A stretch of 64,000 nt of DNA from an uncultured Polyangiaceae bacterium (GTDB lineage Bacteria > Myxococcota_A > Polyangia > Polyangiales > Houyiibacteriaceae): positions 47,701 to 111,700 of the forward strand of contig CAXMRN010000063.1 in assembly GCA_964195565.1 (NCBI GenBank), written 5' to 3'. This document shows, piece by piece, positions 17,253 to 33,510 of this stretch; position 1 is the first letter of the stretch; each line of letters opens with the position of its first letter. Below the pieces are notes generated by a model. That model was not told the origin of the DNA, made no database searches, and saw only the letters and a program-made list of their open reading frames with translations. A program made the position numbers and the translations under genes.

Positions 17253-17419
17253 GAACCCCGGCAGCGGCCAGGTCCCAGGTCAACCGTAGGCAAGCGAGCC
17301 TAGGCAGGCCACAATATATAGTGGGGGTCACACACTGACCCTCCCTTCTGGTCGCGCAAAGCGTTGCAATATCGTATGTTCAGTGATAGCCACGTCCAAC
17401 TACTCCTTTGGGGGGCATC

Positions 17420-20400
17420 GTGAAGATTAAGAAGCTCCAAATCGTTGGCTTCAAGTCCTTCGTCGACCGGACGACGGTCCACTTCGACCACGACATTACC
17501 TGTGTCGTAGGGCCGAACGGGTGCGGCAAATCCAACATCGTCGACGCCATCAAGTGGTGTATGGGGGAGCAATCCCCATCCCGTCTACGCGGCAAGCAGA
17601 TGGAGGACGTGATTTTCAGCGGGGCCGAGGGCCGAGGGCCGCATGGCTTCTCGCAGGTCACGCTGACGTTCGACAACACCGACGGCCTCGCCCCACCGGA
17701 GTACAGCGACTACGCGGAGATTCAGGTCACCCGGCGTCTCGATCGCCAGGGCAACAGCGACTACTCGATCAATCGCACACCGGTCCGGCTCCTCGACATC
17801 ACCAACTTGTTTTTGGGCACCGGCGTCGGCAAGCGAGCGTACTCGATCATCGAGCAGGGGCGCATCGGTTTGATCGTGACCTCCAAGCCGGAGGACCGCC
17901 GATCGATGATCGAAGAGGCCGCAGGGATCAGCAAGTTCAAGCTGAGCAAGCGGACCGCCGAACGCAAGATGGACCAAACGCGCCAGAATCTTCTGCGCGT
18001 CACCGACATCATCGGAGAGCTCGAGCGCAGTCTCGCGTCGCTGAAGCGGCAAGCGCAAAAGGCGGAGCGCTACAAGCGCTACAAGAAAGAGATGCGAGAC
18101 CTCGATCTATGGGTCGCGTCGCACCGCTTCCTCGAGCTGCGTGGACAGATCAGCTCTGCCACGATGTTGTTGTCGAAGGCCAGCGAAGAGGTGCAAGCAA
18201 ACCGTCACGCGTTGGTTGCGAAAGAGGCATCCGTCGAGGCTGATCGTGTTTCGTTGCAGCAGATGGGCTCTGAGGTCGAGCGCGGCCAGGGTCGCGCGTA
18301 CGAGCTCGACAACTTGGTTCGACAGCTCGAAGGGTTGATTCGTCAACAACAGGATCGACAGGCCGCGTTGGTCGAGCGCAAAGAACTCGCGACTCGGGAG
18401 CTTCACCAACTCGAAGAACGGCGGGCTGGGTTGCACCAGGAAGTGTCGACCGTTCGGCTCTCCCTCAGCGAGCTCGAGTCTCTCGAGGCCGAAGCCGGGC
18501 AGCTTTTGGCCACGGTCGAGGCTGAGCTCCAAACCCGTAAAAACACAGCAGAAGAGGCCGAAGCAGCGCTACAGAACGCGCGCGCCCGCCTGGCGGAAGG
18601 CCACGCGCGGGTTGTGGGCGCCGAGGCGGTGCTCGACGGCTACGGCGCGCGGCGCGACGACATTCGCGGGCGTCTCGAACGCTTGCAAGAGGAGTTGCAG
18701 GCACTGGCGACACGCGAAGTCGAGTTCACGCAACAGAGCGGAGAGCTCGGGGCTCGGATGGTTGGGCTGCGCAGCGGCAGGTCAGCGACGGCCGAGCGTC
18801 AAACCGAAATCGAGACCTCGCTGTCGACCGGCAAAGAAGCGTTGCGCCGCGCAGACGCTGAGGTCGACGCTCTCCGAGAGAAGTTTGCGGTCACGAGTTC
18901 GAGGCTGCGGTCGCTCAACGAGATTCACGAGCGTTTCGAAGGCGTCGGTGCCGGCGCACAAGCCGTCATGACCGGGTATGCAAACGCCTCGGGTGACTTT
19001 GGGCGTTCGGGCTTGGTCGGTCTGGTTGCCGATCGCTTGGAGTGTCCGGCCGAGCACACGCGCGCTCTCGGCGCAGCGCTTGGGGGTTCGCTCGAGTACT
19101 TGCTGGTTCAGGACACCGATGCGGCACTGCGAGCTGCTGACTTTCTGGCGCGCGGTGAAAAGGGTCGCGCGACATTCCTTCCGCGTTCGCCGAGCGGCCC
19201 GCCGCGCATCGTGCCGCCGTTCCCCACCGGGACGGGAGTTGTTGGCCCGCTGCTGACGCTCGTCCGCCACTCGCACGCCGATCAGGACTGGGTCCGGTAC
19301 TTGTTGTTCGATGTGCTAGTCGTCGACACCCTCGAGACGGCGGCTCGGCTTCATCGCCAGGGCTTCCAGGGGAAGCTCGTCACGCTCGACGGCCAGGCGC
19401 TGCTCAGCGACGGCGCCGTCGTCGGAGGCGCCAAAGACGAGTCGGCAGCCCATCTGCTGCGGCTGAAGCGCGAAATCCGCGAGCTCGAAGAGGCCGCGGC
19501 GTCCGAGAGCGCCGAGCTCGAGCGCGCGACCGCGAATCAGGGCCGTCTTCGCGCGAGCATCGCCGAGCGCCAGGCCGCGATCGATTCCGCGAGGACCGAG
19601 GCCCACGATGCCGAGCTGCAGATCCTGGGCGCGGAGCGCGATCTACGCGTCGTCGACCTGGAGCTTCGCCGCATCGAGGAGCGCCGCCAGGAGATCGCCA
19701 AGCTCGACGCGGAGGGCCGCGCGGCCCTGTCCCAGGTCGATGTCGATGAGGGCAATACCAAACGGCAGCTCACCGACGCGCAGCGGGACGTCGCGAACGC
19801 CGAAGAAGCCACGCAAGTCGCCGGGAGCGTCCTCGCCGAAAGGCGTCGCGTCGTCGAGGAGCAGGCCGCCAAGGCCACCGAGGTCAAGGTAGGTGCGACG
19901 CAGTCTCGCGAGCGCGCCGATCGCGAGCGTTCCTTGCTCGGGCAACTCGATCGCTCGATCTCGGAGCTCGACGCGCGCGAGGATCGCTTGCGCGAAGACG
20001 TGGCGATCGCCGATCGCGATCAAGGACAGGCGGCCGGCCGCATCCTCTTGCACGGAGGGCGCTTGAGCGAGACAGCGCACAAGGCCGCCCTCGCTCGAGA
20101 GGACCTTTCCAATCAGCGCGGGCGCTACGACGAAGCTCGAACCCAGCTCGGCGAGTCAGAGGCGTCGCTCAAGCGGTTGCGCTCCACCATCGACGAGCAG
20201 TCCACAGAGCTCAACCAGCTCACGCTTCGCGAACGCGAGCTCACATTGTCTCTCGAGCACCTCAACGAGCAGGTCTTCGAGAAGCATCGGGTCGAGCTGG
20301 CGTATGTCATCGGTGACCACCATGCGCGACCGGTACCTGACGCCGAAGTCACCGCGCGTGCGGAGGAGCTGCAGCGGCTGATCGACCGCATGGGCGAGAT

Positions 20401-21025
20401 CAACCTCACGGCGATCGAGGAGTACGAGGAGAACGCCGAGCGCTACGAGTACCTCACCAGCCAGCGCAGAGACCTCGAGGATGCGCTCACCAAGCTCGAA
20501 AAGGCGATTCGGCAGATGAACCGGGAGAGCAGGGCACTGTTCCGTGAAGCGTTTGCTGCGATCAACGAGCGCTTCAAGCGCATTTTCCCCATGCTCTTCC
20601 GTGGTGGAAAGGCCGAGCTCCGGTTGACTGAGCCGCAAGACATGTTGGAGACAGGCGTCGAGATCATCGCGCAGCCTCCCGGCAAGCGTCTAGGCTCGCT
20701 CGAGTTGATGAGCGGCGGAGAGAAAGCCCTGACAGCGGTGGCGCTGATCTTCGCGATCTTCCAGTACAAGCCTAGCCCGTTCTGCCTCCTCGATGAGGTC
20801 GACGCCCCGCTCGACGAGGCCAACATCGGTCGCTTTGCTGAGACCATCCAGCAAATGACAGACCGCTCCCAGTTCATCATCATCACCCACTCGAAGCGCA
20901 CCATGGAGTTCGCCGACGTCTTGTACGGCGTCACCATGGAACAACCTGGCGTCTCCAAGCTCGTCTCCGTCGAGCTCCGCGGCGAGAAGCGCCCCATCTC
21001 CGCAGCCGTCGAAGCCGCCGAATAG
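17420..21025 (+). CDS. smc: Chromosome segregation ATPase SMC
   Basis: The N-terminus reads VKIKKLQIVGFKSF...VGPNGCGKSNIVDAIKWCMGEQS. Long coiled coils follow, and the C-terminus carries LSGGEKALTAVALIFAIFQYKPSPFCLLDEVDAPLD. I prefer the GTG at 17420 (GGGGGG lies upstream) over the track's TTG at 17408. Confidence 0.9.
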   Translation: MKIKKLQIVGFKSFVDRTTVHFDHDITCVVGPNGCGKSNIVDAIKWCMGEQSPSRLRGKQMEDVIFSGAEGRGPHGFSQVTLTFDNTDGLAPPEYSDYAEIQVTRRLDRQGNSDYSINRTPVRLLDITNLFLGTGVGKRAYSIIEQGRIGLIVTSKPEDRRSMIEEAAGISKFKLSKRTAERKMDQTRQNLLRVTDIIGELERSLASLKRQAQKAERYKRYKKEMRDLDLWVASHRFLELRGQISSATMLLSKASEEVQANRHALVAKEASVEADRVSLQQMGSEVERGQGRAYELDNLVRQLEGLIRQQQDRQAALVERKELATRELHQLEERRAGLHQEVSTVRLSLSELESLEAEAGQLLATVEAELQTRKNTAEEAEAALQNARARLAEGHARVVGAEAVLDGYGARRDDIRGRLERLQEELQALATREVEFTQQSGELGARMVGLRSGRSATAERQTEIETSLSTGKEALRRADAEVDALREKFAVTSSRLRSLNEIHERFEGVGAGAQAVMTGYANASGDFGRSGLVGLVADRLECPAEHTRALGAALGGSLEYLLVQDTDAALRAADFLARGEKGRATFLPRSPSGPPRIVPPFPTGTGVVGPLLTLVRHSHADQDWVRYLLFDVLVVDTLETAARLHRQGFQGKLVTLDGQALLSDGAVVGGAKDESAAHLLRLKREIRELEEAAASESAELERATANQGRLRASIAERQAAIDSARTEAHDAELQILGAERDLRVVDLELRRIEERRQEIAKLDAEGRAALSQVDVDEGNTKRQLTDAQRDVANAEEATQVAGSVLAERRRVVEEQAAKATEVKVGATQSRERADRERSLLGQLDRSISELDAREDRLREDVAIADRDQGQAAGRILLHGGRLSETAHKAALAREDLSNQRGRYDEARTQLGESEASLKRLRSTIDEQSTELNQLTLRERELTLSLEHLNEQVFEKHRVELAYVIGDHHARPVPDAEVTARAEELQRLIDRMGEINLTAIEEYEENAERYEYLTSQRRDLEDALTKLEKAIRQMNRESRALFREAFAAINERFKRIFPMLFRGGKAELRLTEPQDMLETGVEIIAQPPGKRLGSLELMSGGEKALTAVALIFAIFQYKPSPFCLLDEVDAPLDEANIGRFAETIQQMTDRSQFIIITHSKRTMEFADVLYGVTMEQPGVSKLVSVELRGEKRPISAAVEAAE

Positions 21026-21027
21026 AA

Positions 21028-21090
21028 GGGACACTCTCCGGGTCCTCAACCCTGCGGAATCAGGGCACTCCTGCGGCAAAGATCGCAGCG
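21028..21090 (+). repeat. Repeat unit copy A: GGGACACTCTCC-N33-GCGGCAAAGATCGCAGCG
   Basis: The unit starts 2 nt after the smc stop codon. By hand alignment, 55 of 63 positions match the reverse complement of 32568-32630. Confidence 0.7.
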
Positions 21091-21103
21091 TGCCCCGACG
21101 GGG

Positions 21104-23386
21104 CTAGCCAACGATCGCGTCGAGCGCGGTCGAGTGCGAGTGGGCGAGTTCCTCGACGGACACCTCGCAGGCGCCGTCGATGTTGAGCATCTCGCCTGTC
21201 ACGCGTCCGATCTTCTCGAACGGAACGCCGTAGCGCTTGCAGATGTCTCCCACCTCGCTGGCGTTGGCTGCCGATAGGCTGACGATGATGCGCGACGGCT
21301 CTTCGCTGAAGAGCAGAGCGTGTGCGGGGGCGTCCTCGCTCGAGGGGAGGGTGACGCGCGCGCCGTGCCCGTTTGCGATGCAAGCTTCGGCCACGCATAC
21401 GGCAAAGCCGCCATCACTGATGTCGTGCGCGCTCTTGAGCAATTTGCCGCGCGCGAGTTCCAGCGTCGCGTGCTGAAGGGCCGCCTCGGCTTCGAGGTCG
21501 ATCCCGACCGGCGCGCCAGTGATTGAGCCGGTGTGCTGGACGAGCCATTCCGAACCACCGAGGACGCCGCGAGAGGGCCTTCCAAGGTGCGCGATGACGT
21601 CGCCTTCGAGGACGAAGCCGAGCCCCAGTCGATGCTCGGGGTCTTCGAGCTGGCCGACCACGGCGACTGTCGGCGTCGGCAAGATCGCATTGCCGTCGGT
21701 TTCGTTGTAGAGGCTCACGTTGCCCGACACGACCGGCGCGCCAAGCGCCGTGCATGCCGCTGCCAGGCCGTCGACGGCCTGCGCGAACCGCCACATCTGC
21801 TCGGGAATCTCGGGATTACCGAAGTTGAGGCAGTCGGTGAGGCCCAACGGTTTGGCCCCAACGCACACGATGTTGCGGGTGCACTCGGCGACTGCCATCG
21901 CGGCTCCGCCGTAGGGGTCGAGCTCCACGTGCCGACCGTTGCAGTCGGACGAGATCGCGAGAAACTTCTCGCGCGTCCCCGAGGCGTCTTCGCAGAACAC
22001 GCGAACCACTGCCGCGTCGCCTTCACCCGGACCAAGGACGGTGCCGTCGCGGACGATGTGATCGTACTGACGCCAGATCCAAGAGCGGCTTCCGATGTTG
22101 GGCGAGCCGATCAATCGGACGAGTTCCGCGCCGAGGTCATCGGGGGCATCGCCGGTCATCGTCACCAAGGTCGCGCTCTCGGGGCGTGCTTCTTGCGGTC
22201 GATCGTACTTGGGGGCTGCATTCGTCAGAAGATCGACCGGCAGGTCCACCACCACGACCGGGTCCGGCTTACCGGTGCCGTCGAATGGGTCGTATCCCGG
22301 GGTGGCCTTGCACACGAAGCGGCTGGTGTCGGTCACGCGCCCCACAATCGATGCATCCAAATCCCACTTCTCGCAGACGTCGAAGACCTCTTGCTCGCGT
22401 CCCTCTTTGGCCACCATGAGCATGCGCTCCTGCGATTCGCTCAAGAGCATCTCGTACGGGCTGAGCGCTTTTGTGCGTCGCGGAATCGCGTCCAGGTCGA
22501 GCTCGATGCCGTTGCCGGCGCGGTCTGCCATTTCGACCGATGAGGAGGTGAGGCCCGCCGCGCCCATGTCTTGGACGCCTGAGAGACAGTCCGTCGCGAA
22601 GATCTCGAGACAGGCCTCGAGGAGCAGTTTCTCCATGAAGGGGTCGCCGACCTGCACAGTGGGGAGCTTGCTGTCCGTCTCCTCCCCGAACTCGGCACTG
22701 GCCATCGTCGCGCCGTGAATCCCGTCGCGGCCGGTCTTGGCCCCGACATAGATGATCGGATTTCCGACCCCTTCGGCGACCCCGAAGAAAAGCTCTTCGG
22801 TTCTGGCGACGCCGACGGTGAACGCGTTGACCAAGATGTTTCCGTCGTAGCTCGCGTCGAACTGGACTTCGCCGCCCACGGTCGGGACACCGATGCAGTT
22901 ACCGTAGCCGCCGATTCCGGCGACGACGCCCTTGAGCAGGTAAGGGGTCTTGGGATGGTCGGGTCGACCGAACCGTAGCGAGTTCAGAGACGCCACCGGT
23001 CGAGCGCCCATCGTGAAGACATCGCGCAAGATGCCGCCGACACCCGTCGCCGCGCCCTGGTACGGCTCGATGTAAGACGGATGATTGTGCGACTCCATCT
23101 TGAACACCGCGCAAAACCCGTCGCCGATGTCCACCGCGCCGGCGTTCTCGCCAGGCCCTTGAACCACCTGAGGCCCCGTCGTCGGCAGCCGTCCGAGGTG
23201 AATTCGCGATGACTTGTACGAGCAGTGCTCAGACCACATGACACTGATGACCCCGAGTTCCGCATAGCTCGGCGCGCGCGCTAGTGTACTCAGAACACGG
23301 TCCCATTCGTGCTCCGCCAACCCGAACTCGCGGGCGATTTCGGCAGAGCTGTCGGGCTCTCCAGGAAAGTTGGCTGGTGTGCTCAT
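21104..23386 (-). CDS. purL: Phosphoribosylformylglycinamidine synthase subunit PurL
   Basis: The 760-aa product has typical small-PurL blocks (HCSYKSS, ESHNHPS). Confidence 0.95.
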
Positions 23387-31192: not shown

Positions 31193-32512
31193 GTGCTACG
31201 TTCGGCCGCCGTGAGCCATCGAGCACAAGACTCTGCGGCATCCAGCCCGCGTGCCCGTTGGGCGCTGACCGTCCTGCTGCTGGCCTACGTCCTTTCGTTC
31301 ATCGATCGCAACGTCATGGCGATCCTCGTTGGGCCTATTCGTAGGTCGTTCGATATCACGGACTTTCAGTACGGATTGCTGCACGGGCTAGCTTTCACCG
31401 TCTTCTACACGTTTCTGGGTCTCCCGATCGGCCGCCTTGCGGATAGCAAGAATCGCCGGGCGATCATCGGCGTGGGTGTGTTGTTCTGGTCGGTGATGAC
31501 TTGCGCGTGCGGCCTGGTGCGGAGCCTCGGCGGCCTGTTCGTTGCTCGCATGGGCGTCGGCCTCGGTGAGGCTGCGTTGTCCCCGCCGGCGCACTCGCTC
31601 TTGAGTGATCTCTTTCCAGCGAAGCTACTCCCGCGCGCCATGTCGATATTCACACTTGGAATCACCATCGGCGGTGGCATGGCATACATGATCGGCGGCT
31701 GGGTGTTGGGCGCCCTCGGCGACGCCGAACTATCTCTACCGATGCTCGGTTCGCTCGAACCCTGGCAGCTCACCTTCATCCTGGTGGGGCTGCCCGGTTT
31801 TGCGGTCGGCTCGCTGGTCTGGACGATTCGCGAGCCCAAGCGTCGCGGCCTTGCTCGCTCGGAAGGGGAGGGGGTGCCGGTTCGCGAGGTGATCGGCTAC
31901 TTCCGCACCCATGCGCGGCTTTACGGATCGATCCTAGGCAGTGTCTCGATGTTGTCAGTCCTCGGGTACGGTACGATCACTTGGTACGTCGAGATGCTGA
32001 TTCGCAACTACGGCGCCGAGGCAAGCGTAGTGGGTCCGAAGTTTGGTTGGATCTTCATCATTGCTGGGAGCGCGGGCGCGCTGAGCGGAGGGCTTTTGGC
32101 GGAGCGAATGGGCCGTCGATACGAAGACGCCAACCTGCGCGTCGTTGTCGTAGCGGCGTTGCTGTGGCTCGGACCCGGCATCCTCGGGCCGCTGATGCCC
32201 ACAGAACGAGGTGCGCTGCTCATGGCCGCCCCGATACTCTTCTTGATGAGTAGCTATTTCGGGCCGGCGATTGCGGCGTTGCAGACGTCGACGCCGAACG
32301 AGATGCGCGCACTGGCTTCGGCGCTTCTGCTGTTCGCGGCGAACCTATTCGGGCTGGGACTCGGACCCCCGTTGGTCGGGGCGTTGACCACCCACGTTCT
32401 CGGTGGCGACCAGACGCTGCACCTCGCGCTCGCCGGCCTCTCGGCGGTCTTCGCACCGTTGGCCGCGATCATGGGCGCTTGGGGATTACAGGGACACTCT
32501 CCACCCCCCTAA
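31193..32512 (+). CDS. MFS transporter
   Basis: The 439-aa product has 12-TM character and the MFS motif GRLADSKNRR. Its last codons lie inside repeat unit B-left. Confidence 0.8.
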   Translation: MLRSAAVSHRAQDSAASSPRARWALTVLLLAYVLSFIDRNVMAILVGPIRRSFDITDFQYGLLHGLAFTVFYTFLGLPIGRLADSKNRRAIIGVGVLFWSVMTCACGLVRSLGGLFVARMGVGLGEAALSPPAHSLLSDLFPAKLLPRAMSIFTLGITIGGGMAYMIGGWVLGALGDAELSLPMLGSLEPWQLTFILVGLPGFAVGSLVWTIREPKRRGLARSEGEGVPVREVIGYFRTHARLYGSILGSVSMLSVLGYGTITWYVEMLIRNYGAEASVVGPKFGWIFIIAGSAGALSGGLLAERMGRRYEDANLRVVVVAALLWLGPGILGPLMPTERGALLMAAPILFLMSSYFGPAIAALQTSTPNEMRALASALLLFAANLFGLGLGPPLVGALTTHVLGGDQTLHLALAGLSAVFAPLAAIMGAWGLQGHSPPP

Positions 32513-32631
32513 CCACTCGAATTGGCACCGCTTCTCCGGCAAAGATCGCAGCGTGCAATACCAGCGCCGCTGCGATCTTTGCCGCAGAAGTGGCGTGGTT
32601 TCGCGGGGTTGGGTACCCGGAGAGTGTCCCC
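32491..32631. repeat. Head-to-head dimer of the 63-nt repeat unit (B-left 32491-32553, B-right 32568-32630 inverted)
   Basis: The outer arms are GGGACACTCTCC and GGAGAGTGTCCC. The perfect 17-bp inner inverted repeat is CGGCAAAGATCGCAGCG / CGCTGCGATCTTTGCCG, separated by 14 nt. The dimer fills the MFS/dam convergent junction exactly. Confidence 0.75.
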
Positions 32632-33510
32632 TTAGTAGTTGCGGGCTATTATTTCGGTTACTTTGCCGCGTTTTTTTGGGTCGCAGTTGATGGCTCGGGG
32701 GGCGGCTACTGTGGCGATGTTGAAGTCTTTGTAGAGCTCTCGGGTGAAGGGGACGTCGCTGTTGGAGAGCATGAGCTTGCAGCCGCGGCGGTCGAGGGCT
32801 TTGTAGACGTCGCGTAGGCGGGTTTGGTCTTCTTGGGAGAAGCCGTCTCGGGCGTACGCGGTGAAGCTAGCGGTTTGGGAGACCGGCTCGTAGGGCGGAT
32901 CGAAGTAGACGAAGTCGCCGGGCTTCGCGTTCTCGAGCAGTGCGTCGAACGGCGCGCACCTCAGTTGGGCGTCTCGTAGTGCGAGGCTTGCCGCGCGCAG
33001 ACCGTCCTCGTTCAGAATCCGGGGATTCTTGTACGACCCGACCGGTACGTTGAACTCGCCTTTGCGGTTCACCCGGTGCAACCCGTTGAAGCAGGTCTTG
33101 TTGAGGTAGATGAACATCGCTGCACGCTTCGAGACGGAGACCCGCCGACCTTGGTTGTAGCGTTCGCGGACTTGATAGTAGCTTTCCTTCGAGTGGCGGC
33201 CGGCCAGTCCGCGCAGCGCCACGATCACTCGACCGACGTCGTCGCGGATCGCGGAGTAGGCTGCCACGAGAGTCGGATTGATGTCCGTCAGCAGCGCTCG
33301 CCCTGGGCGGCGCGAAAAAAAGAGCGCGCCGCCGCCGACGAATGGCTCGACGTGGCGCATGTGCTCTACCCCTGAAGGGAGCAGCGGTCGCAGTTGGCTG
33401 AGCAATCGGCCCTTTCCCCCCACCCACTTCACAAAGGGGGCTGCCTCCCGTGGCTGTTGCTCTAGCCTCACCGCGACCGCTGCAGATGTCGTCATGTGTA
33501 GTATGATCAC
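32632..33510 (-). CDS. dam: Dam-family (D12 class) N6-adenine DNA methyltransferase (orphan)
   Basis: Supporting motifs are FVKWVGGKGRLL and FVYFDPPY. An alternative ATG start lies at 33495. Confidence 0.85.
   Translation of the reverse strand: MIILHMTTSAAVAVRLEQQPREAAPFVKWVGGKGRLLSQLRPLLPSGVEHMRHVEPFVGGGALFFSRRPGRALLTDINPTLVAAYSAIRDDVGRVIVALRGLAGRHSKESYYQVRERYNQGRRVSVSKRAAMFIYLNKTCFNGLHRVNRKGEFNVPVGSYKNPRILNEDGLRAASLALRDAQLRCAPFDALLENAKPGDFVYFDPPYEPVSQTASFTAYARDGFSQEDQTRLRDVYKALDRRGCKLMLSNSDVPFTRELYKDFNIATVAAPRAINCDPKKRGKVTEIIARNY

Follow-up and report, generated by a model that had tools for sequence, protein, structure and literature searches.

Three copies of a 63-nt unit and their neighbouring genes

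The window, the whole stretch of 64 kb of DNA that was analysed, contains three copies of a 63-nt unit of the form GGGACACTCTCC-N34-CGGCAAAGATCGCAGCG at two gene junctions. At the first junction the smc gene (17408–21025, plus strand; Pfam SMC_N, 228 bits, and SMC_hinge) is convergent with purL (21104–23386, minus strand; Pfam AIRS, AIRS_C and FGAR-AT_linker). Unit A, a solo 63-nt arm of the G-type, lies between them at 21028–21090 on the plus strand (profile-HMM score 51.9 bits, E 7.5e-14). Its outer box GGGACACTCTCC is situated 2 nt past the smc stop (TAG, 21023–21025) and its inner box CGGCAAAGATCGCAGCG 13 nt short of the purL stop; a GC hairpin, GCCCCGACGGGGC (21092–21104), overlaps the latter stop (21104–21106). 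At the second junction an MFS transporter gene (31211–32512, plus strand; Pfam MFS_1, 121.6 bits) faces a gene for a D12-class (Dam-type) adenine methyltransferase (32632–33471, minus strand; Pfam MethyltransfD12, 214 bits). Here two units form a complete inverted doublet, with the C-type unit B as the left arm (32491–32553, plus strand; 58.6 bits), a 14-nt spacer as the loop (32554–32567) and the G-type unit C as the right arm (32568–32630, minus strand; 55.0 bits). Units A and C are 87% identical (55/63), A and B 72%, and B and C 76%. Both the 12-mer and the 17-mer of the unit occur exactly three times in the window with zero mismatches; when up to three mismatches were allowed, the 17-mer gave four matches against 0.75 expected, a number reached in none of 100 shuffles.

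The outer box of unit C is 1 nt away from the methyltransferase stop (32632–32634). The MFS stop (TAA, 32510–32512) corresponds to unit positions 20–22 of unit B and is thus located within the unit, so that the last six MFS codons (GHSPPP*) are element sequence. Compared with the orthologue in the related genome L246, the MFS C-terminus has been swapped for this element-encoded GHSPPP*, and the C-terminus of the methyltransferase is intact in comparison with L246, L247 and L248. Relative to the empty MFS/Dam site of L246, about 50 nt of the junction have been replaced by the element, which is not a simple insertion. The earlier note, made from the letters of the window, had reported the three 63-nt copies, their positions and the 55/63 match of A and C, and all these sequence statements hold; Pfam verified the identities that it gave to the convergent smc/purL pair, the MFS gene and the Dam gene. 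It had also placed a unit end close to a same-strand stop in all three cases, to which the position of the MFS stop within unit B is a refinement.

In L244 and L247 a solo unit orthologous to A likewise lies directly at the smc stop; the unit is missing from this stop in the syntenic relatives L245, L246, L248 and L249. Counting the window, three related genomes thus have the orthologous solo unit and four lack it. Another gene separates purL from smc in each of the six relatives that were compared. Copy A is probably what is left of a doublet that lost its other arm, and its position at the smc stop predates the divergence of the window lineage from L244 and L247. The GC hairpin GCCCCGACGGGGC does not belong to the repeat family, since no such hairpin follows the orthologous units of L244 and L247. 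No T-tract terminator was predicted in the region of GCCCCGACGGGGC, and the fold of this region was not significantly better than those of shuffled sequences (z −1.0 to −2.2).

Family structure, folding and placement at gene ends

At least 231 units were identified in 0.96 Mb of fetched Myxococcota DNA, and 222 of 227 were exactly 63 nt long. The REP-like repeat reading of the earlier note is supported in that copies number hundreds beyond the window. Among the matches listed for the 17-mer alone in a genome collection, most were chance hits in unrelated phyla; when these were filtered for the 12-mer, the full unit was found in MAGs of Myxococcales/Polyangiaceae. It was also present on at least 120 metagenome contigs, and a search of 2.9 million viral contigs gave zero matches to the repeat pattern. 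Judged from the window, 118 kb of unselected DNA of relatives and the extra copies in selected loci, the density of elements is about one per 50–100 kb. Rfam gave no match in the window at the gathering threshold, and a relaxed search around B/C returned only spurious sub-threshold matches to miRNA hairpins (22 bits vs 93).

The majority of the units (184/231, 80%) form 92 doublets, in every one of which the inner boxes face each other; the remainder are solo like copy A, and B/C shows the typical doublet layout. Neither tandem nor outward-facing neighbours occurred within 300 nt of any of the 231 units. Each arm carries an outer box GGGGACACTCTCC and an inner box (C)GGCAAAGATCGCAGCG, the inner boxes facing each other over a spacer of 4–93 nt whose sequence is unconserved and whose lengths cluster at about 12–15, 21, 35 and 47–50 nt. 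Two arm types can be told apart, and these differ within one doublet in 48 of 82 cases. Directly 5′ of GGGACAC the flanks share the consensus (A/T)AG, similar to GTAG without its first base. The basic, replicating entity is the inverted doublet of two 63-nt arms, of which B+C in the window is a complete example. Where L169 has a doublet, the orthologous sites of L161 and L199 carry a solo unit. Profile scores of solo and paired units were alike (50.2 vs 49.9, p = 0.74), a comparison that is biased because exact matches to the boxes had served to retrieve the loci. At orthologous sites the boxes were 93–94% identical, the flanks 76% and the middle 71%; these figures compare occupied with occupied sites among selected loci, and those for the boxes are partly circular because the copies were found by their boxes. 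No clean empty site defining the insertion boundaries was found among the selected loci, the MFS/Dam site of L246 being a replacement. Target-site duplications of 2–5 nt were absent from 80 non-redundant doublets in registers 0 to 2; the maximum was 11/80, at 2 nt, and lengths of 3 nt or more stayed at the level of shuffled sequence.

The B/C doublet (32491–32630) was predicted to fold strongly both as RNA (−96 kcal/mol, z −11.5) and as single-stranded DNA (−52.6 kcal/mol, z −9.3). Most of this pairing is due to the two conserved boxes, as the arm middles of partners do not co-vary: the identity of the variable middles was 0.506 for true partners and 0.526 for shuffled partners. This lack of co-variation indicates that what is conserved is not the long hairpin as such, on which the REPIN model puts the emphasis. 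An internal helix within the unit likewise had no covariation support, the pairing frequency at all column pairs being that predicted from column composition, and the column pairs of highest mutual information in the unit alignment were non-complementary. Solo copy A folded no better than shuffled sequences. With its 63 nt the unit is not a canonical short imperfect palindrome of about 20–40 nt, and GTAG is absent from both strands of its consensus. Intrinsic terminators with a GC-rich stem and a T-tract were found at zero sites in 20700–21400 and 32200–32900, and the unit had stops in all three reading frames no more often than shuffled sequence.

Placement of the elements was far from random, as the earlier note had suspected from its three copies. 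A same-strand gene end was within reach of 46% of the units vs 8.7% of random positions. Among 102 edges facing a gene 3′ end, 94 (92%) had the stop at most 5 nt away or inside the element, and the median gap from an element to start codons was 43 nt. The elements lie between genes or extend a few codons into a gene end, and in nearly half of the anchored cases the host gene takes its stop codon and its final residues from the element. Gene calls on 71 doublets, made with a caller based on codon usage, assigned 68% of the doublets to tandem junctions, and divergent junctions were depleted (6% vs 17% background). An impression gained from nine loci, that the doublets are specific to convergent junctions, was rejected on these calls. 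Intergenic spacing is compact, with medians of 6 nt at convergent and 23 nt at tandem junctions. Survival next to stops may result from compact genomes and selection against insertion nearer to the next start, or from targeted insertion. Asymmetric doublets showed a weak bias relative to the direction of transcription (18 to 7, p = 0.04), the cases being non-independent.

A transposase gene bracketed by inverted arms

The 64-kb window contains no RAYT gene. The earlier note had proposed a search for one, and a RAYT-type transposase bracketed by copies of the unit was found in other loci. In L212 and L162 two inverted arms, facing inward as in the doublets, enclose an ORF of 217 aa. Its product matches Pfam Y1_Tnp (PF01797) with 44–48 bits against a cutoff of 23, and the best NCBIfam model is REP_Tyr_transpos (E ~1e-16), at about 60 bits and thus under the equivalog cutoff of 80. 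The same arm-transposase-arm arrangement was observed in L241 and L242, at protein identities down to 56%, and L240 has an arm on one side only. In these five genomes the gene occupies a conserved locus with mglB/mglA-like genes, RAYT and leuS. A RAYT of 49% identity in a different genomic context, in L243, is also bracketed by inverted arms, which share a perfect 16-nt outer box and have a different inner repeat. All RAYT loci but one are orthologous, and the association thus amounts to about two independent cases. Clusters of transposase homologues comprised few contigs each, and no second copy was detected beyond orthologues in about 2 Mb of fetched DNA. Judged from these sequences, the gene looks like an apparently single-copy, vertically inherited gene for a RAYT-like HUH/Y1 transposase, vertical inheritance being suggested by the one chromosomal position that is kept across proteins diverged to 56% identity.

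Residues H60 and H62 (HUH), Y120 and N124 were invariant in 31 homologues. A PDB sequence search with the transposase gave only a weak match to the HUH motif. The AlphaFold model (pLDDT 87.5) had as its top Foldseek match 4ER8, the E. coli RAYT with a REP hairpin (E 1.3e-7, TM 0.74, 164/165 residues). Chains of the IS200 family ranked below it, with E values of about 2e-5 and about 125 aligned columns. By the Foldseek rank of the predicted structure and the best NCBIfam model, the protein appears nearer to RAYTs than to IS200/IS605 enzymes.

Interpretation of the element

The unit most probably represents a single arm of a non-autonomous mobile element of the REPIN type in uncultured Polyangiales-like Myxococcota. 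The inverted doublets, the preferred spacings, the singlets as probable remnants and the RAYT with its flanking repeats fit the published REPIN definition (PMC3116915; PMC5581495). As in the GI-GIII REPINs of Pseudomonas fluorescens SBW25 (Bertels & Rainey 2011, PMC3116915), most units are paired in inverted orientation, the spacers having preferred lengths and an unconserved sequence, singlets probably derive from doublets by decay, the many copies are extragenic, target-site duplications are absent, and the repeat occurs on both flanks of a Y1 transposase gene that is apparently single-copy and vertically inherited. They differ from those REPINs in an arm of 63 nt that is bipartite with a fixed spacing of 34 nt and has neither a palindrome of its own nor a GTAG/GTGG head; moreover, the arm middles do not co-vary and 48/82 doublets mix arm types. 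The host is a member of the Myxococcota and not of the Gammaproteobacteria, and the anchoring to stop codons is far tighter than any described for REPINs. The system is thus of a known kind, REPIN/RAYT, with an unusual arm that is long and bipartite, is no palindrome itself and lacks a GTAG head. A literature search found no report of a REPIN/RAYT system in Myxococcota.

The E. coli REP/BIME repeats with TnpA-REP, the 'REPtron' (4ER8; Corneloup et al. 2021, PMC8266576), provide the best fold match (TM 0.74), with conserved HUH motif and catalytic Tyr, inverted copies of a dispersed repeat bracketing the gene and many copies near stop codons. Protein identity to TnpA-REP is, however, only about 15%, the myxococcal protein has an extra C-terminal region of about 50 residues, and E. 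coli REPs are imperfect palindromes of 29–37 nt in which a GTAG is essential and a bulge occurs; both features are absent here. Reasoning from the transposase family, the enzyme would recognise, in single-stranded DNA, the pair of conserved boxes with the constant 34-nt distance between them, and would excise and re-insert the doublet without target-site duplications. Where an element reaches into the end of a gene, the final few codons and the stop come from it.

It is rather improbable that the unit is primarily a 3′-end module selected by the host, such as a terminator, an mRNA stabiliser or a translation attenuator, with a secondary or historical link to the transposase. Such a module would agree with the extreme anchoring to stops as opposed to starts, the excess of same-strand gene ends near units, the depletion at divergent junctions, the very stable doublet hairpin and the higher identity of boxes than of flanks or middles at orthologous sites, although this last figure is biased by the way in which the copies were found. 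E. coli REPs at most 15 nt from a stop reportedly cause ribosome stalling and lower expression (PMC12306157). However, compact spacing together with selection against promoter disruption can yield such anchoring without function, no T-tract terminator lies at either site of the window, and reading-frame closure is no better than in shuffled sequence. A structural role would depend on pairing, but co-variation between partner arms is absent and the folds of solo arms are not significant; two exact boxes at a fixed spacing suggest recognition by a protein over generic structure. Orthologous junctions of close relatives, furthermore, are without the element and without any evident replacement. 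Roles as a terminator or a 3′UTR RNA, both raised in the earlier note, remain as possible additions to the REPIN reading and not as alternatives to it.

Less probable still is an active, ordinary selfish insertion sequence of the IS200/IS605 type, with the arms as its ends and the doublets as its PATE-like miniatures, in place of a domesticated single-copy RAYT with REPINs. These elements move by single-strand 'peel and paste' chemistry without target-site duplication and yield short non-autonomous derivatives, so the absence of duplications is equally expected of them. The Y1 HUH catalytic domain is common to both systems; Pfam places the protein only in the general Y1_Tnp (IS200-like) family, the RAYT-specific NCBIfam model stays under its cutoff, and the arm-bracketed gene resembles a compact insertion sequence of about 840 nt. 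Known IS200/IS605 elements are, however, multi-copy and horizontally mobile, have asymmetric ends with subterminal hairpins, and insert beside a fixed tetra- or pentanucleotide, whereas the arms described here are symmetric without internal hairpins, no fixed target motif was found, and the gene is syntenic and apparently single-copy. Its one position despite the divergence of the protein points to vertical descent and not to repeated insertion. Except for orthologues, no further copy occurred in the roughly 2 Mb of fetched DNA. The RAYT structure was matched over its full length and IS200-family enzymes over a core of about 125 residues only, and the viral contigs without a single pattern match also speak against such an element. 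A classical cut-and-paste MITE of the Correia, ERIC or RUP-like kind, in which a DDE transposase acts on terminal inverted repeats, is very improbable. The size of about 140–175 bp, the perfect terminal inverted repeats of 12–13 nt, the intergenic location and the multiple copies would fit, and ERIC and Correia elements are likewise imperfect palindromes of about 100–170 bp in transcribed intergenic regions near gene ends. Correia elements, by contrast, have TA duplications, an IHF site and DDE-type mobilisation, ERIC has no known transposase, and neither is linked to a Y1 transposase. The MITE part of the earlier proposal is disfavoured in its classical sense by the absence of target-site duplications in any register among the 80 doublets and of a DDE transposase, the only gene found between arms being that of the Y1 HUH enzyme; MITEs also lack a further box inside the element that is strictly conserved at a constant distance.

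Four further ideas were dropped. The boxes do not fit the RYYYAAC/GTTRRRY pattern of integron attC sites, for which the arms are also far too long, and the GG-N10-GC of a sigma-54 promoter is absent. A link between the GATC of the inner box and the Dam-type gene was rejected, as the methylase is syntenic in relatives without the doublet. The 11.6-kb interval between A and C contains housekeeping genes that are syntenic in relatives, and is not a composite transposon bounded by these units.

With the REPIN-type element as the preferred reading, it is conceivable, though doubtful, that the family represents a structurally distinct REPIN class, recognised by two boxes exactly 34 nt apart in a long, non-palindromic arm and not by a mini-hairpin with a GTAG tag, and that its members have been co-opted as stop-abutting 3′ modules. 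If so, termination, mRNA stability or translation output might be set genome-wide by these elements in a little-studied branch of the Myxococcota. Among mobile DNA that is kept within bacterial lineages through vertical inheritance, REPIN/RAYT systems have been studied best. Experiments on them concern a few Gammaproteobacteria, in which recognition depends on a GTAG head and a small hairpin. The system of the Myxococcota would show a RAYT scaffold that recognises another substrate, namely long, bipartite, non-palindromic arms, and the inner box, which changes along with the transposase next to a constant outer box, would offer a natural series for the study of specificity. The near-universal abutment of stops, often with rewritten C-termini, would make it a good test system for distinguishing tolerated parasites from elements that serve the host at gene 3′ ends. 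Annotators of MAGs from these bacteria should expect palindromes of about 140–175 bp at gene ends, artificial protein tails like GHSPPP, and assembly breaks at these sites.

The repeat unit and its family

The window carries three copies of a 63-nt unit, GGGACACTCTCC-N34-CGGCAAAGATCGCAGCG, with copy A at 21028-21090 and copy B at 32491-32553 on the forward strand and copy C at 32568-32630 on the reverse strand. Each end motif occurred exactly three times in the 64 kb, the 17-mer well above shuffle expectation. As the earlier note had described, A and C matched at 55 of 63 positions (87%); B and C were 76% identical and, inverted with a gap of 14 nt, together formed a 140-nt near-palindrome. 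The predicted hairpin of this B/C doublet was extremely stable, at -96 kcal/mol (z -11.5) for RNA and -52.6 kcal/mol (z -9.3) for single-stranded DNA. Copy A by itself was predicted to fold no better than shuffled sequence, and no T-tract terminator was found at either window site. Pfam searches confirmed the identity of all four flanking genes, which encode SMC, PurL, a transporter of the MFS type and a Dam-type methyltransferase (D12 class). A stop codon had been placed near the unit end in all three copies; this held for smc, which ends 2 nt ahead of unit A, and for the methyltransferase, whose stop is 1 nt from unit C, but the MFS stop falls within unit B (unit positions 20-22). A GATC (Dam site) could also be observed in the invariant core of the inner box (21082-21085, 32545-32548 and 32573-32576), and the methyltransferase gene (32632-33471) adjoins the GATC-bearing doublet, an adjacency that looks coincidental because the gene is syntenic in relatives without the doublet.

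A 17-mer scan with one genome per species gave chance matches for the most part; among the matches listed, several loci held a complete unit or an evident variant of it, and the unit-bearing genomes were all Myxococcales, Polyangiaceae, Sandaracinaceae or 'delta proteobacterium' MAGs. A relaxed two-box pattern found at least 120 loci in metagenome contigs, and a profile built from the retrieved loci, many of them orthologous to one another, detected 231 units in 0.96 Mb, in agreement with the earlier claim of more than chance similarity. Unit length was exactly 63 nt in 222 of 227 copies, with the consensus GGGACACTCTCC.cccccccAAcc.cccGaaAtcac.....TtCTc.ggcAAAGATCGCAGCG; about 75% of copies had G at flank position -1, and positions -2 and -3 were A-rich. 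No Rfam family matched the unit, and its pattern had zero matches in 2.9 million viral contigs. Two solo units (L215:277-339 and L216:54-116) preceded a tRNA gene by about 80 nt, with the tRNA-like sequence GCGTAGCTCAGCTGGATAGAGCGCTCCCCTCCGGAG after the inner side of the unit.

Pairing of the units followed a single arrangement: 184 formed 92 doublets, always with the inner boxes facing, and no other arrangement of neighbours within 300 nt was found among the 231 units. Doublet spacers measured 4-93 nt, clustered in length and unconserved in sequence, and 48 of 82 doublets combined a 'G-type' with a 'C-type' arm. One doublet, at L189:9300-9497, had an unusually long spacer, filled by a short (CTGACACTG/CCCCTGACACTG-like) tandem repeat, ahead of the partner's outer box. 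About 36 units were true solos of the copy A type. An origin of solos by decay of doublets would fit L169, where a doublet occupies the site at which L161 and L199 have a solo.

At orthologous sites the boxes were 93-94% identical, the flanks about 76% and the middle 71%, the box figures being partly circular, as the copies had been located through these same boxes. No column pairs within the unit paired above the frequency predicted by composition, indicating that a single arm is no palindrome, and the variable middles of partner arms were no more alike than those of random arms (0.506 vs 0.526 ± 0.010). The constraint thus lies on the two boxes and their exact spacing, which suggests a putative sequence-specific protein recognition and not selection for a long helix. 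No target-site duplications were found around doublets. Directly 5' of GGGACACTCTCC (flank -4 to -1, unit 1-12; e.g. 21024-21039) an (A/T)AG consensus and a possible mini-hairpin GGGA-CAC-TCTC loosely resemble the canonical REP 'GTAG plus short stem-loop'; all positions concerned are invariant, so that covariation is uninformative on pairing.

A transposase gene between the arms

L212 and L162 each have two inverted units that lie about 716 nt apart, rather than a few dozen, and enclose a 217-aa ORF encoding a Y1 HUH transposase (Pfam Y1_Tnp, 44-48 bits; cutoff 23). Its top NCBIfam model was 'REP-associated tyrosine transposase' (RAYT; E ~1e-16, under the equivalog cutoff). There were 477 homologues at E < 1e-10, those with a named source always being Polyangiales, Myxococcales, Sandaracinaceae or Myxococcota, and the HUH histidines and catalytic tyrosine were invariant. 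The best match of the AlphaFold model (pLDDT 87.5) was 4ER8, the complex of the E. coli RAYT with a REP hairpin, over the whole chain (TM 0.74); IS200/IS605 transposases matched only over a core of about 125 residues. The RAYT search that had been advised thus led to a transposase bracketed by the unit in other genomes; no homologue was present within the 64-kb window.

The gene position is conserved, with mglB/mglA-like genes on one side and leuS on the other, and the unit also brackets the gene in L241 and L242 (56% protein identity). As these leuS-adjacent loci are orthologous, they were counted as one association. On L240, the sole closed chromosome sampled (CP070713.1), the RAYT is annotated as partial (202 aa; interval L240:9928-10606); the left flanking unit alone is present, and a NUDIX gene stands in place of leuS on the right. 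In this lineage the transposase may be decaying, although doublets (L067) persist. A second association was found in L243 (Sandaracinaceae), where the transposase is 49% identical and lies in a different neighbourhood; its arms share the perfect 16-nt outer box GGGGACACGCTCCCCC, with a different inner repeat of 38 nt. In the interval L243:8599-13838 this RAYT has an MFS transporter gene on one side and PEPCK on the other, and a D12 methyltransferase is adjacent; the gene types MFS and D12 also flank the B/C doublet. Chance probably accounts for the match, but a RAYT could once have occupied the B/C site.

Placement at gene ends and history of the window copies

Genes were called on the loci with a self-trained codon-usage caller built for this analysis. 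Doublets lay at 48 tandem, 19 convergent and 4 divergent junctions (background 64%, 19% and 17%); the element avoids divergent promoter regions and has no specificity for convergent junctions. The proposed 3'-end association was confirmed: of 102 edges facing a gene 3' end, 94 had the stop at most 5 nt away or inside the element (median -1), and edges facing a start codon had a median gap of 43 nt. Stops fell at -6 to -2 relative to the unit or at discrete internal positions (+19, +27, +32, +44). Much of this anchoring could be explained by the compactness of the genomes, whose element-free junctions had median gaps of only 6 nt (convergent) and 23 nt (tandem), together with selection against disrupting the control region of the next gene; targeted insertion or a putative host function are possible sources as well. 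Of 25 asymmetric doublets at tandem junctions (L120-L239), 18 had the C-type arm beside the stop of the upstream gene, a weak bias (p = 0.04, cases not fully independent) that could reflect strand-specific insertion. In E. coli, REPs close to stop codons were known before and are reported to stall ribosomes (PMC12306157). A putative terminator, mRNA-stability or translational role is plausible in addition to a REPIN-type nature of the element.

PurL comparison placed the window among uncultured Polyangiales-like MAGs (best match 93%), and its sites were compared with six syntenic relatives (L244-L249). L244 and L247 also have a solo unit directly at the smc stop and L245, L246, L248 and L249 have none there, indicating that copy A is an inherited solo arm at a presence/absence-polymorphic site; L248 has no space for an element, as its smc stop is overlapped by the following gene. 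In all six relatives a further gene separates smc from purL (L244:4023-5423, L247:12270-13664, L248:12285-13592, L245:12289-13511, L246:12394-13667, L249:12491-13641), variably an amino-acid permease, an unknown 403-420-aa ORF or a 305-aa ORF, and the window has none (21091-21106). The missing stretch starts at most 13 nt from the inner edge of unit A, and the repeat possibly marks or promotes indel breakpoints. Beside the Dam-type methyltransferase, the window (31211-32631) and L246 (1714-3905) have the MFS gene, L247 (1011-2221) and L248 (1076-2220) a small DUF5522/CxxC ORF with a gap of about 340 nt, and L245 (1-1114) an arylsulfotransferase. In L246 the element is absent and the methyltransferase and MFS genes overlap by 10 nt; compared with it, the doublet in the window exchanges the last ~17 MFS codons for GHSPPP and a stop, with the methyltransferase C-terminus intact. 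Both window elements therefore lie at points of varying gene content.

Relation to REPIN/RAYT systems

The finding is real, and the repeat and transposase are best explained as a family of REPIN-type doublets (REP doublets forming a hairpin) with a RAYT-like transposase, in line with the REP-like reading of the earlier note. The family figures derive from sequence comparison of sampled loci (0.96 Mb), and mobility is predicted. REPIN/RAYT is an already known kind of system (PMC3116915, PMC5581495, PMC8266576); a literature search found no report of one in Myxococcota. The canonical REP unit is a short palindrome with a GTAG head, whereas the Myxococcota unit has neither of these defining features. 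For this reason the Myxococcota system is filed as departing from canonical REP and as resembling REPIN/RAYT in its way of working.
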